A DNA stretch of 64,000 bases from Escherichia coli O157:H7 (GCF_013167455.1 NZ_CP038328.1), one strand, 5' to 3'; positions 23,736 to 46,808 are shown, numbered from the stretch's first letter. The notes: a model not told the origin generated them from the letters alone. Program-made: numbers and translations.

Positions 23736-24770
23736 ATGATGTTCAGAAATAGAATATTACTAATATTTATATTGTGGGCTAATTTTACCTGGGCTGGGTG
23801 TCGTACTACTGCATCATTAAATATTACAGATGGTATTAATGTTGGGGAGATTTTAGCGAATGAAACTTCCTTTAGTAAAAGTGTCGTGTTTACTGGGATA
23901 TCTTGTGATACGAGCACGGATAAAATAGTTTATAAAAATATCCAAAGTGATTGGGTTGAAGTTGGGCCTTTTGGTAATGGCGAAAAATTAAAGGTTAAAA
24001 TAGAGTCTTTAGGTAAAACCAGCGACACAATTGGGAAATCCAGCAATGCGCAGGCAGTATTACCTTATGTGGTTAAAATAGCCAGAGGCACACCTGATTT
24101 TACTGGAGAAAGAAAATCTACCTGGTTTATTTCAGATACCGTGATTGCAAATATTGGCGGTGAGTCATCGTCATCCATCGATTTTTGGTTGGGTATTTGT
24201 AAGGCATTGAAGTTTAACTGGTGTGTGAATTATCTCACCAGCAAACTGGCGGGGGATACATTTACGCTTGGGTTAAATATTTCCTATTATCCTAAAAATA
24301 CGACCTGTAAGCCTGAAAACACCGTTATAAAAGTAGATGATATCGCCTTGTTCCAGCTCAGAAATCAGGGAAAGATTGCGGCGAACAGTAAGGAAGGAAC
24401 AATTACGTTGAAATGTGATAATCTTTTCGGCGACAAAAAACAAGCATCGCGGAATATGGTTGTATATCTTTCTAGCAGTGACTTAGTTAAAGGAAGTAAT
24501 ACTATTTTGCGTGGTAAAACAGATAATGGTGTAGGGTTTGTGTTGGATCTAACAGAACCACCAAAAGGGACTGAGGCTGCCATTAAAATTTCGGCCAACG
24601 GCGATCAGGGCGCGGCGACATCATTATGGAAAACAGATAAACCAGGAGTTTCATTAAATAGCAACATTATTAATATACCAGTCATGGCCAGTTACTATGT
24701 ATATGATGAAAAAAAAGTTAAATCTGGCGCACTGGAAGCAACCGCATTAATCAACGTGAAATACGATTAA
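23736..24770 (+). CDS. yehA: Fimbrial adhesin-like protein YehA
   Basis: 344-aa ORF with signal peptide, last gene of the cluster. Confidence 0.8.
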   Translation: MMFRNRILLIFILWANFTWAGCRTTASLNITDGINVGEILANETSFSKSVVFTGISCDTSTDKIVYKNIQSDWVEVGPFGNGEKLKVKIESLGKTSDTIGKSSNAQAVLPYVVKIARGTPDFTGERKSTWFISDTVIANIGGESSSSIDFWLGICKALKFNWCVNYLTSKLAGDTFTLGLNISYYPKNTTCKPENTVIKVDDIALFQLRNQGKIAANSKEGTITLKCDNLFGDKKQASRNMVVYLSSSDLVKGSNTILRGKTDNGVGFVLDLTEPPKGTEAAIKISANGDQGAATSLWKTDKPGVSLNSNIINIPVMASYYVYDEKKVKSGALEATALINVKYD

Positions 24771-26399: not shown

Positions 26400-26672
26400 A
26401 TGTCTCATACAATCCGTGATAAACAGAAACTGAAAGCGCGTGCCAGTAAGATTCAGGGCCAGGTCGTGGCGCTCAAGAAAATGCTCGACGAGCCGCACGA
26501 ATGCGCTGCAGTTTTACAACAGATTGCTGCTATCCGTGGCGCGGTAAACGGTCTGATGCGGGAAGTGATTAAAGGTCATCTAACGGAACATATCGTTCAC
26601 CAGGGGGATGAGCTAAAACGTGAAGAAGATCTGGATGTTGTTCTGAAGGTGCTGGATTCTTATATCAAATGA
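26400..26672 (+). CDS. rcnR: Ni/Co-responsive repressor RcnR (CsoR/RcnR family)
   Basis: 90-aa [24 protein letters not shown]..., divergent from rcnA. Confidence 0.9.
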
Positions 26673-43425: not shown

Positions 43426-43457
43426 TGCCGGATAAGGTGTTTACACCGCATCCGGCA
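43426..43457. repeat. REP element after gatR
   Basis: tgccggataaggtgtttacaccgcatccggca palindrome. Confidence 0.55.
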
Positions 43458-43494
43458 TTACGGATTCTCCCTGGTTCAAGAGAGAATAGTTTGA

Positions 43495-44394
43495 TTAACG
43501 CAATAATGGACAATCTGGTGGTAATCGACAACGCAACGCCGCCGGAAGTATTTCAATATGGAAGTTTTGCCCACTCAACGGTTCGCCATCAAGATTAAAA
43601 GTGATTTCGTGTGGGGCTTGTATATCAAACCACGACGAAGCGCCTTCGATAATATTCGGGTTATCTTCGTCAGATTTTAAGGTTGATACGAGAGCCGGAA
43701 GAATTTCATCGCCGGTAAAAATGCGCAGTTGCAGCAAGCCATCGTTAATTAACGCGTTCGGGCACAATTGTTGACCGCCACCGGCCTGACGCCCGTTACC
43801 AATACCAATGACCAGGGCGTCACCTTGCCAGTGAAAGTTTTCACCGCGGATTTCACAACGGTCCGGTTGCAGAGTATCCATGCGCATTAAGCCATGAATG
43901 ATGTAAGAGACGCCACCCAGCGCGGCTTTTAATTTTTCCGGCGTTTCTGTGGTAATACGCGTCCCAAATCCGCCTGTCGCCATATTAATAAAACAGGTTT
44001 GTTTGTTGACCTGCGCCATATCTATCGCAATGGCGTTACCGGCAATTGCCAGTTTCAGCGCCTTATCCAGTGCCTCAGGAATCCCTACACTGGTGGCAAA
44101 ATCATTGGCGGTTCCTAATGGCAAAATTCCCAGCGCGGGTATGTCATCCCCCTCACACTGAATCAACGCCGTAGAAACTTCATTAATGGTGCCATCGCCA
44201 CCACCGGCAATCACCGTTGCGACGCCCAACTTCCGGGCCTCCTCTACATATCGTGCGGCATCGCCTTTCTCCCAGGTGACCCGCACATGGATCGTCATTC
44301 CTTCCTCACGCAACAGCATAATTGCTTCGCGCAAGGGTAGATTGTCAGTACTTTTGCCATTAAGAATCAGTAAGCTGGCGGGAAATTCTGCCAT
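43495..44394 (-). CDS. yegS: Lipid kinase YegS (DAGK-like)
   Basis: 299-aa ORF with GGDGT motif. Confidence 0.85.
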
Positions 44395-44799
44395 GATCGT
44401 ATGTGCCTTTATGATTGGTCTATAGATAGTGTAGAGCAGAAAAGAAAAGGTGGAGTCAGAACAGGATGAAAGTCGGAGGATAAATAGTCAGTTCAAGTAT
44501 GGAGGATTCAGTGGTTACCACCAGGAGCTTGCAATGGGGACAGCGAATACTAACGGCAGCCACCGATAAATTTCAAAAAAGAGCATATACCTAATATTCA
44601 ACTAAACAGTGGCTTCTTCAATATAATATATTAAAGCCTCCATGGAGTTACCCGGAAGGGCCTCCATGTCCGTAATTCCTACTTATGTAGGAAATGTTTT
44701 ACAGAACATTTATTATAATCCTATTCAATTATAATAATCATGCCATTATTATATTTAAACACTAGAGAGTGTCGTTGGTATTTAATGGGGGAAGGTGAG

Positions 44800-45117
44800 A
44801 TGAAAAAGATAGCTGCTATATCATTAATTAGTGTTTTTCTTATGTCTGGTTGTGCTGTGCATAATGATGAGACAAGTATCGGTAAATTTGGTCTTGCATA
44901 TAAAAGTAATATTCAGCGTAAACTCGATAACCAATACTACACCGAAGCCGAAGCTTCTTTAGCCAGGGGCAGAATATCTGGTGCAGAAAATATAGTAAAA
45001 AATGATGCAGCCCATTTCTGTGTTACTCAGGGCAAAAAAATGCAGATAGTTGACCTGAAGACAGAAGGTGCAGGATTACATGGCGTCGCTCGTCTGACAT
45101 TCAAATGTGGAGAGTGA
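44800..45117 (+). CDS. yegR: Small lipoprotein-like protein YegR
   Basis: Start MKKIAAISLISVFLMSGC (lipobox LMSGC) after SD aaggtgag; 105 aa. Confidence 0.7.
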   Translation: MKKIAAISLISVFLMSGCAVHNDETSIGKFGLAYKSNIQRKLDNQYYTEAEASLARGRISGAENIVKNDAAHFCVTQGKKMQIVDLKTEGAGLHGVARLTFKCGE

Positions 45118-45274
45118 GAATATTTTTTGGTAAGCGTCAAACATGCGCGTTCTGGTTGTGCTTAGCCGGAACCTGTGCGAGCACGATGCCGTTACGTGAA
45201 AGGCATCGTGCTATGAAGGGAGATTCTATCGATGTGGTCAATGGAAGACGGTTATCAGGGATAGGGCTTATGCA

Positions 45275-45362
45275 TAAAAAATAAGCCCGTGTAAGGGAGA
45301 TTACACAGGCTAAGGAGGTGGTTCCTGGTACAGCTAGCATTTTATGGGTTATGTTTTTCAGC
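45275..45362 (-). ncRNA. cyaR: CyaR (RyeE) Hfq-dependent sRNA
   Basis: Minus strand reads GCUGAAAAACAUAACCCAUAAAAUGCUAGCUGUACCAGGAACCACCUCCUUAGCCUGUGUAAUCUCCCUUACACGGGCUUAUUUUUU, matching CyaR as I recall it, including the terminator hairpin and U-run. Confidence 0.75.
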
Positions 45363-45446
45363 GAAACGGATGATAACCTTAATAAATGCAGCTGTATGTG
45401 ATCGGTTTCTAAGAATTTTCCATCCGGGAAAAATAATCGAAATTAA

Positions 45447-46808
45447 TCACTTACCGTGGGGGTTACGCGTAGTTTCCCCGGAGAAATTACGCATCAGCAG
45501 CGCGTAATTTAGCTCAAGATCCTGCGGCACCGGGAGCCACACAGTATAACCATCGCCTGGTGCTACCGGCATAGCTTCGCCTTTGGCGTTTTCCATGTGC
45601 TCAAGGGTAAAGTTAATGTTGCCTTGCGGCGTCATCAGCTCAAGGCTGTCGCCAACGGAGAATTTATTTTTCACCGCTACCGCCGCGAGGTCCCCCTTGC
45701 GCTCACCGGTAAACTCACCAACAAACTGCTGGCGGTCAGAAACTGAATAACCGTATTCGTAGTTCTGATAATCGTCGTGAGTATGACGACGCAGGAAACC
45801 TTCGGTATAGCCACGATGCGCCAGACCTTCCAGAGTTTCCAGCAGGCTGGTATCGAACGGTTTGCCCGCAGCGGCATCATCGATAGCTTTACGATAAACC
45901 TGTGCGGTGCGTGCGCAATAGTAGAAAGATTTAGTACGGCCTTCGATTTTCAGCGAATGCACGCCCATTTTGGTCAGGCGTTCTACATGGGCGATGGCGC
46001 GCAGATCTTTCGAGTTCATGATGTAAGTGCCGTGCTCATCTTCAAACGCGGTCATATACTCGCCCGGACGCTGGGCTTCTTCGATCATAAACACTTTGTC
46101 GGTTGGCGCGCCGATACCCAGCGTCGGCTCAACATTTTGCACCGGAATCGGCTCGTACTTGTGTACGATGTTGCCAACGTCATCTTCTTTCCCTTCCTGG
46201 ACGTTGTACTCCCAGCGGCAGGCGTTGGTGCAGGTACCCTGGTTCGGATCGCGCTTGTTGATATAGCCAGAGAGCAGGCAGCGACCGGAGTAGGCCATGC
46301 ACAGTGCGCCGTGAACGAAGATCTCGATCTCCATATCCGGCACCTGATTGCGGATCTCTTCAATCTCTTCCAGCGACAGCTCGCGAGAGAGGATCACGCG
46401 GGTCAGTCCCATTTGCTGCCAGAATTTCACCGTCGCCCAGTTCACGGCGTTAGCCTGTACCGAGAGATGGATCGGCATTTCAGGGAAGTGCTCACGCACC
46501 AGCATAATCAGCCCTGGATCGGACATAATCAGCGCATCCGGCCCCATTTCCACCACCGGTTTCAGGTCACGGATAAAGGTTTTCAGCTTGGCGTTGTGCG
46601 GTGCAATGTTGACCACGACATAAAACTTTTTCCCCAGCGCGTGGGCTTCATTGATGCCGAGCTGAAGGTTTTCGTGGTTGAATTCGTTGTTGCGCACACG
46701 CAGGGAGTAACGCGGCTGGCCCGCATAAACAGCATCTGCGCCATAAGCGAAAGCGTAACGCATATTTTTCAGCGTTCCCGCCGGGGAAAGGAGTTCCGGT
46801 TTAAACAT
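45447..46808 (-). CDS. yegQ: Peptidase U32-family protein YegQ
   Basis: 453-aa ORF with U32 family motifs. Confidence 0.85.
   Translation of the reverse strand: MFKPELLSPAGTLKNMRYAFAYGADAVYAGQPRYSLRVRNNEFNHENLQLGINEAHALGKKFYVVVNIAPHNAKLKTFIRDLKPVVEMGPDALIMSDPGLIMLVREHFPEMPIHLSVQANAVNWATVKFWQQMGLTRVILSRELSLEEIEEIRNQVPDMEIEIFVHGALCMAYSGRCLLSGYINKRDPNQGTCTNACRWEYNVQEGKEDDVGNIVHKYEPIPVQNVEPTLGIGAPTDKVFMIEEAQRPGEYMTAFEDEHGTYIMNSKDLRAIAHVERLTKMGVHSLKIEGRTKSFYYCARTAQVYRKAIDDAAAGKPFDTSLLETLEGLAHRGYTEGFLRRHTHDDYQNYEYGYSVSDRQQFVGEFTGERKGDLAAVAVKNKFSVGDSLELMTPQGNINFTLEHMENAKGEAMPVAPGDGYTVWLPVPQDLELNYALLMRNFSGETTRNPHGK

Follow-up and report, generated by a model that had tools for sequence, protein, structure and literature searches.

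The gap between yegR and yegQ in the Escherichia coli O157:H7 sequence studied here (GCF_013167455.1, NZ_CP038328.1) is the P2 attachment site of E. coli in its unoccupied state, and a conspicuous hairpin located in the same gap takes no part in the P2 junction. The analysis covers a window of 64,000 nucleotides, which shows 100% identity to O157:H7 chromosomes over 1201 bp, and positions given below are those of the window unless another sequence is named. Comparison with related genomes and with P2 further suggests that this 'empty' site forms one end of a fossil P2-type insertion carrying yegR, a reading which is well supported statistically and of modest interest. The yegR transcript most likely carries the hairpin as a 3' stem-loop that is not under selection or is incidental at best.

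The gap extends over 329 bp (45118-45446), in agreement with the spacing of about 330 bp given in the initial annotation. To its left lies yegR (44800-45117, plus strand), an open reading frame encoding a lipoprotein of 105 residues (Pfam PF27694), and to its right the host gene yegQ, also called trhP (45447-46808, minus strand), recognised as an open reading frame and from the annotation of matching genomes. The host neighbour on the far side of yegR is the lipid kinase gene yegS (43495-44394, minus strand), an open reading frame of 299 residues annotated under this name in matching genomes. The small RNA CyaR (RyeE), which had been placed in the gap on the minus strand, was indeed detected there at 45279-45364, with a full-length match to the Rfam family RF00112 (model positions 1-85 of 85) at 100.7 bits, the gathering score being 47, and an E-value of 4.8e-20. 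A CRP-like site, a -10 element and an intrinsic terminator with a U-tail are all present. On reading the sequence, the promoter was assigned to 45370-45412 (minus strand), with TATCAT as the -10 element (45375-45370) and TGTGATCGGTTTCTAA as the CRP-like site (45397-45412), the centre of which lies approximately 40.5 bp upstream of the cyaR start; CyaR is known to be under CRP control (PMC3333887). A terminator scan located the intrinsic terminator of CyaR at 45284-45311 on the minus strand, where an 11-bp stem is followed by TATTTTTTAT. yegR and cyaR are convergent.

When the gap sequence was searched against phage records, positions 45275-45302 were found to be identical to P2 positions 24355-24382 (28/28 bases), and the P2 record annotates the attP/Int core at 24356-24382. 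By this identity the P2 attB core, the classical 'locI' site, occupies 45276-45302, covering the 3' half of the CyaR terminator, and cyaR is restored upon integration because these 27 bp are present in the phage as well. Occupied sites are arranged around the same core. In four lysogens the attL junction runs from yegR through the hairpin and the core directly into the P2 P' arm and int, and in a P2-like prophage of Citrobacter braakii the attR order is ogr, terminator, P arm, core and cyaR, the arrangement of ogr, P arm, core and cyaR being found in K-12 as well. P2-type integrases would be expected to cross over within the 27 bp of the core. The window shares with P2 'locI' and with the K-12 remnant PR-X both this core at the cyaR 3' end and the neighbouring genes. 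The locus is a standard example of integration at the 3' ends of small-RNA and tRNA genes (ssrA, rybB, sdsR and tRNA genes), where the core overlaps the terminator of the RNA gene and is duplicated while the gene stays intact; rybB and ssrA (PMC3032704) and sdsR (PMC3333887) are analogous prophage sites. 'cyaR RNA' appears in a published table of P2-type insertion sites, together with 'ogr-D'' in K-12 (PMC3032704). Earlier work has already established the attachment site, the overlap between it and the cyaR terminator, and the remnant in K-12. Both locI and the K-12 remnant were reportedly described by Barreiro and Haggard-Ljungquist in J Bacteriol in 1992, and Int/IHF-dependent recombination at this site is on record for E. 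coli C.

Empty sites are the rule in E. coli. With a 181-nt probe spanning the core, an uninterrupted site was observed in 4207 of 5423 complete E. coli genomes (78%), the remainder breaking at 45268-45275, and with a longer probe, which tolerates inserts of up to about 1.1 kb, the two sides were joined in 4564 genomes. From these two counts, approximately 357 genomes carry an insert of K-12 size and approximately 860 a larger one. Break points at 45268-45275 and at 45302 divide the site at the core in about 1200 genomes. The ogrK and yegZ sequences of K-12 are absent from the window, as they are from about 78% of the 5,423 complete genomes, which bears out the earlier proposal that the window represents the unoccupied state.

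The initial annotation had also placed a P2 remnant with ogrK and yegZ here in K-12, and this was accurate: the 'cryptic prophage PR-X', 629 bp in length and comprising the D' pseudogene yegZ and ogrK, is annotated exactly between yegR and cyaR. On the yegR side, K-12 retains the hairpin, the 63 bp after it and bases 1-18 of a copy of the core (...AAATAAGCCCGTGTA). This truncated copy ends at the equivalent of 45293/45294, where microhomology of a few bases marks its fusion to the 3' portion of P2 gene D (near P2 position 23745-23757). To the right of gene D follow ogrK, its terminator, the P arm and a full core leading into cyaR. PR-X is the right end of a P2-type prophage, left between the truncated and the full copies of the core. 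On alignment of the window with K-12, the junction of the remnant does not map to the hairpin, contrary to what had been proposed; its boundaries lie 63-80 bp to the right of it. As compared with K-12 the window is the empty state, and the annotated 629-bp remnant omits yegR, the hairpin and the older arm relics described below. We suggest that the annotated boundary of PR-X in K-12 understates the phage-derived DNA at the locus.

The older relics delimit a block of about 800 bp (44474-45274) which contains yegR and the hairpin and which, judged from sequence comparison, is quite probably the residue of an earlier P2-type integration at the same core. The block is missing in E. fergusonii, the one outgroup species sampled, whose locus was found through its YegQ protein. 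The order there is yegQ, cyaR, core, 85 bp and yegS, with yegR, the hairpin and the arm-like sequence all absent. In a global alignment with this locus the homology, which extends from yegS as far as 44473, stops at that position and resumes at 45275, the exact left edge of the core. The GC content of the block is 34-38%, compared with 50-57% in yegS and yegQ.

At the left end of the block, directly after the host bases that adjoin the intact core in E. fergusonii, there is a degenerate copy of the 27-bp P2 core on the plus strand (44479-44508), a putative attL relic that includes the best ungapped match to the core within the block (17/27 at 44482-44508). Local alignment to P2 places a candidate relic of the P' arm, the integrase-side arm of attP, immediately after it (44509-44611, plus strand). 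The core part taken alone is not significant, its score of 8.0 being reached by 715 of 2000 shuffles. Core and P' arm taken together (44482-44611) align to their P2 counterparts with a score of 25.5, where shuffled sequences give 11.2 +/- 2.1 and none of 2000 scores as high. Among 3192 sliding tiles covering both strands of the window, this was the top score outside the real core. The next unrelated tile, at about 26405-26540, scored 21.5 with many gaps and is probably a chance match. A reverse-complement control for the attL relic was not significant.

At the right end, alignment to the P2 arm identifies a probable P arm relic at 45226-45275 (plus strand) with a score of 20, the shuffles giving 9.1 +/- 1.6 with 0/2000 as high. 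It includes TCGATGTGGTCAATG (45229-45243), an exact 15-mer copy of the first Int arm-type repeat of P2, at which the P2 record annotates the Int P-arm site, and the same 15-mer opens the P arm of the live P2-like prophage in C. braakii. The consensus of Int arm sites has been given as tgTGGaCa (PMC3448106). Some E. coli variants carry a longer and more P2-like P arm relic. The att-derived flanks stand in the correct order and orientation, and the breakpoint of the absence in E. fergusonii falls at the core. As the block is bounded by a decayed core with P' arm on one side and by a decayed P arm with an intact core on the other, the present attB would be the attR of the fossil insertion, with yegR and the hairpin inside. 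The earlier statement that the gap is free of prophage remnants is accurate for PR-X only, since these apparent P2-type att-arm relics flank the whole yegR block.

No phage gene is recognisable in the block, in which only yegR remains, and in a BLAST search of 44440-44810 and 45118-45446 against phage records, the only matches besides those of 28-35 bp to the P2 core were to records that include host flank or a K-12-type remnant. The absence of surviving phage genes and the chromosomal setting of yegR homologues elsewhere count against a fossil insertion. These two points, along with the reliance on a single outgroup species, leave a small chance that there is no fossil at all, E. fergusonii having deleted yegR and its surroundings and the arm-like matches being coincidental. 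However, such a deletion would have its right breakpoint at the core edge to the base, and two independent arm-like matches, each above all 2000 shuffles, would have to occur by coincidence in the right order and orientation. Salmonella too has a P-arm-like relic to the left of the same core, and a sequence 78% identical to the right end of phage 186 occupies part of the corresponding place in another Escherichia lineage. With an older integration as the preferred reading, E. fergusonii may never have acquired the block or may have lost it by integrase-mediated excision; both fit. Like cryptic or 'grounded' prophage remnants, the block is bounded by att sequences, low in GC and absent from a sister species, whereas its decay is extreme and its one remaining gene encodes a lipoprotein and has a chromosomal location in other genera. 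No earlier report of such a fossil at this locus was found in the literature.

If this is correct, a previous integration of the same kind supplied the end that textbooks treat as a 'bacterial' attachment site, which is a modestly useful side result, and yegR, an uncharacterised lipoprotein gene, is likely of horizontal origin. The locus may also serve as a simple test case of whether arm-type integrase sites in the host flank affect site preference. It is improbable, in our estimate, that the leftovers are still functional, either with the invariant Int arm repeat, 33 bp from the core, favouring P2 integration here or with the hairpin insulating the convergent yegR and cyaR transcripts. The segment comprising the Int repeat and the next bases (45229-45252, TCGATGTGGTCAATGGAAGACGGT) is invariant in 13/13 E. 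coli sequences of an unbiased set and in nearly all IMG/VR copies, and is conserved more strongly than the neighbouring hairpin.

Homologues of yegR in Cedecea-like genomes have ordinary chromosomal, non-phage neighbours (phnA, GNAT, nitroreductase and Ivy genes), and are followed by a paralogous second lipoprotein gene which is intact there. In B2-type strains such as ST131, and in an Escherichia sp. representative (strain SCPM-O-B-8794, hereafter L008), a decayed 5' part of this second gene is observed right after the yegR stop codon. The remnant measures about 170 bp in ST131 and is longer in L008. The corresponding stretches are 918-1090 in locus L002, 4319-4530 in L008 and 4322-4642 in L011, one of the loci with the second gene. 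Comparison with the B2-type strains and L008 places the site of the remnant, deleted both in the window and in K-12, at 45118-45126. L008 shares with E. coli the left junction, yegR and everything up to 45180, in agreement with a fossil insertion. From the equivalent of 45181 to the core it carries a filler of about 130 bp (4577-4704 in L008), including some 80 bp with 78% identity to the phage 186 right end and, after these, a P2-like arm, which is most simply read as a later prophage decaying leftwards. The hairpin is missing from L008 and is therefore dispensable there. 'Divergent' YegR proteins (76-88% identity) were considered as outgroups and discarded, as they derive from error-laden long-read assemblies of ordinary E. 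coli. In Salmonella enterica the sequence to the left of the same core contains a short hairpin and a P-arm-like relic (TAGTGTGGTCAATTTTTGGATGTGG); no significant attL relic was detected beside yegS in Salmonella. The Salmonella locus also has, before yegS, an island with a gene for an SseK/NleB-family effector and a CesT-like chaperone gene.

The hairpin of the window consists of a perfect 11-bp stem with an 11-nt loop on the plus strand, and starts 62 nt past the yegR stop codon. The inverted repeat was correctly described as perfect, but it had been placed four bases too far to the right (45184-45216); its true span is 45180-45212, with the arms agcacgatgcc at 45180-45190 and ggcatcgtgct at 45202-45212. 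It does lie beside cyaR as had been stated, 'just beside' here meaning a distance of 66 nt to the CyaR 3' end. The stem is G+C-rich, and the predicted RNA fold has an energy of -20.8 to -24.6 kcal/mol, with z-scores of -4.7 on the plus strand and -5.1 on the minus strand and 0/200 shuffles as stable. Intrinsic terminators have short loops of 3-8 nt; the hairpin may alternatively be drawn with 14 bp, one mismatch and a 5-nt loop. It is the sole perfect stem-loop of at least 11 bp with separate arms in the whole 64-kb window, where by our own estimate about 0.3 would be expected by chance (about 1e-3 for the gap). The hairpin was found in 5400 of 5426 genomes, with a median of one and a maximum of two places per genome (5414 genomes). 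Membership of a repeat family of the REP/BIME type was ruled out by this single copy.

A second, imperfect stem-loop (GTTCTGGTT/AGCCGGAAC) is predicted in the yegR 3' UTR at 45151-45174 (plus strand) from the fold of 45130-45278, and its pairs are not kept in ST131 or L008. To the right of the hairpin, AAGGGAGATT (45216-45225) was considered as a second copy of the core and taken as chance, its 15/27 ungapped matches being equal to the shuffle mean and K-12 having AAGGAGGATT instead. In E. coli 1218KP an IS3-family element is inserted at the equivalent of about 45224, 12 bp to the right of the hairpin, indicating that the gap tolerates disruption.

Variability was assessed on 13 E. coli sequences that were not chosen by hairpin pattern, six of which are low-identity hits over 45165-45266. 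In this set 4 of 22 stem positions vary (18%) and 3 of 11 loop positions, while 16-19% of positions vary in the flanks on either side. The corresponding figures are 4/47 for the arm relic, 1/27 for the P2 core and 0/62 for cyaR outside the core. Being as variable as its flanks, the stem gives no sign of selection. The loop variants observed are GTTACG, GATAAG and AATAAG. In the stem, a common B2-type substitution (45189 C>T) results in G-U pairing on the yegR strand and in an A-C mismatch on the minus strand, and the rare singletons are 45202 G>A and 45209 T>A, which break pairs, and 45211 C>T, which gives G-U. No compensatory changes were observed in the stem: two of its four variable sites break a pair and two give G-U.

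On this evidence the hairpin may be regarded as a 3'-UTR stem-loop of the yegR transcript, whose effect on yegR transcripts, before they enter antisense cyaR, would most likely go no further than incidentally hindering 3'-5' exonucleases or weakly stopping transcription. Stable stem-loops that lack a U-tract at the 3' ends of Rho-terminated E. coli mRNAs are a described class (Dar and Sorek 2018, PMC6061677). The hairpin resembles this class in being a stable 3'-UTR stem-loop with no U-rich sequence after it, but the RNA that follows it (45213-45275, plus strand) has 11% C and 33% G and is not a C-rich Rho-loading site. This C-poor, G-rich downstream RNA counts against the exonuclease-barrier idea. 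No entry for yegR was found in the Term-seq supplementary tables searched.

That the hairpin is simply a neutral leftover within the fossil block, whether a relic or a palindrome formed by chance, with no selected function, has in our judgement slightly less than an even chance of being correct. The equal variability of stem and flanks, the lack of covariation and the pair-breaking singletons at 45202 and 45209 all agree with neutrality, the occurrence of one such stem-loop in 64 kb exceeds chance by little, and the L008 lineage lacks the hairpin while still having yegR. Against this, the hairpin is kept in nearly all genomes (though so is the rest of the block), and the commonest stem change, at 45189, preserves pairing on the yegR strand.

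The hairpin is unlikely to be a canonical Rho-independent terminator, whether serving yegR only or, in both directions, yegR and cyaR together. Such a terminator is suggested by a G+C-rich stem placed shortly after the yegR stop codon between two convergent genes, and the initial annotation had offered it as a possible role. However, no T-run follows the stem on either strand, the sequence being ATGAAGGGAG on the plus strand and CGCACAGGTT on the minus strand, the loop has 11 nt, and the scan that called the CyaR terminator made no call here. Compensatory substitutions are lacking and rare strains have stem-breaking changes. The terminator role was not borne out in its canonical form. The hairpin lies in a position like that of the intrinsic ogr (F-operon) terminator, which closes the last rightward operon of P2-like phages, just to the left of the TCGATGTGGTCAATG arm repeat, a likeness of synteny only. 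It is separated from the repeat by 16 nt with no T-run, as against 7 nt in the phages (a 6-nt T-run and one base). A decayed phage ogr terminator was tried as its origin and rejected, the alignment score of the hairpin region alone with P2 being reached by 264 of 2000 shuffles and that with C. braakii by 1257 of 2000. Likewise, the hairpin or its preceding 60 bp gave no significant match as the end or terminator of the second lipoprotein gene (loci L010-L012).

A role on the minus strand is highly unlikely. Under this proposal, CyaR read-through transcripts would load Rho at 45275-45213 and pause or end at the hairpin, thereby protecting yegR against antisense transcripts. On that strand the tract of 63 nt separating the hairpin from the CyaR terminator is C-rich and G-poor (C/G = 3.0), and the hairpin is equally stable there. 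Yet this argument is purely compositional, in a tract that owes its base composition to the phage arm, CyaR has a strong terminator, and the B2-type change at 45189 produces a mismatch on just this strand.

The suggestion that the hairpin is the attachment site or scar of the K-12 P2 remnant, prompted by its being the most conspicuous structure near cyaR and matched by the departure of the L008 lineage from E. coli exactly at its left edge (45180/45181), can be virtually dismissed: the P2 core lies elsewhere (45276-45302), the K-12 junctions are base 18 of one core copy and the full core, the intact hairpin, 63 bp to the left of the core, keeps an identical position in the empty, K-12 and lysogen states, and in IMG/VR each of the 73 hairpin hits preceded by host-like sequence falls in host flank, with none in a phage attP. 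The hairpin is thus settled as not being the P2 junction, and this main point amounts to housekeeping.

Carriage of the hairpin by a living phage was also considered and rejected. A scan of IMG/VR returned 96 stretches. The 73 preceded by host-like sequence are all prophage calls extending into host flank; among the remaining loci, those examined were cut at a contig end or were apparently unrelated chance matches. In INPHARED only records with host flank or with a K-12-type remnant were found. The record ON470606.1 (phage vB_EcoM-720R8) and about 70 IMG/VR UViGs include host flank, in the form of gatR, yegS, yegR or 381 bp up to the hairpin, and hits to such records are therefore no evidence of phage carriage.

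Two minor features concern the host neighbours. In E. fergusonii and some E. coli (two loci each), yegP and yegQ are separated by a parD/parE toxin-antitoxin pair, which is not present in the window. Just downstream of yegS, at 43426-43461, there is a sub-threshold match to the Rfam family naRNA4 (36 bits, compared with 59.5), which resembles a REP-type palindrome.
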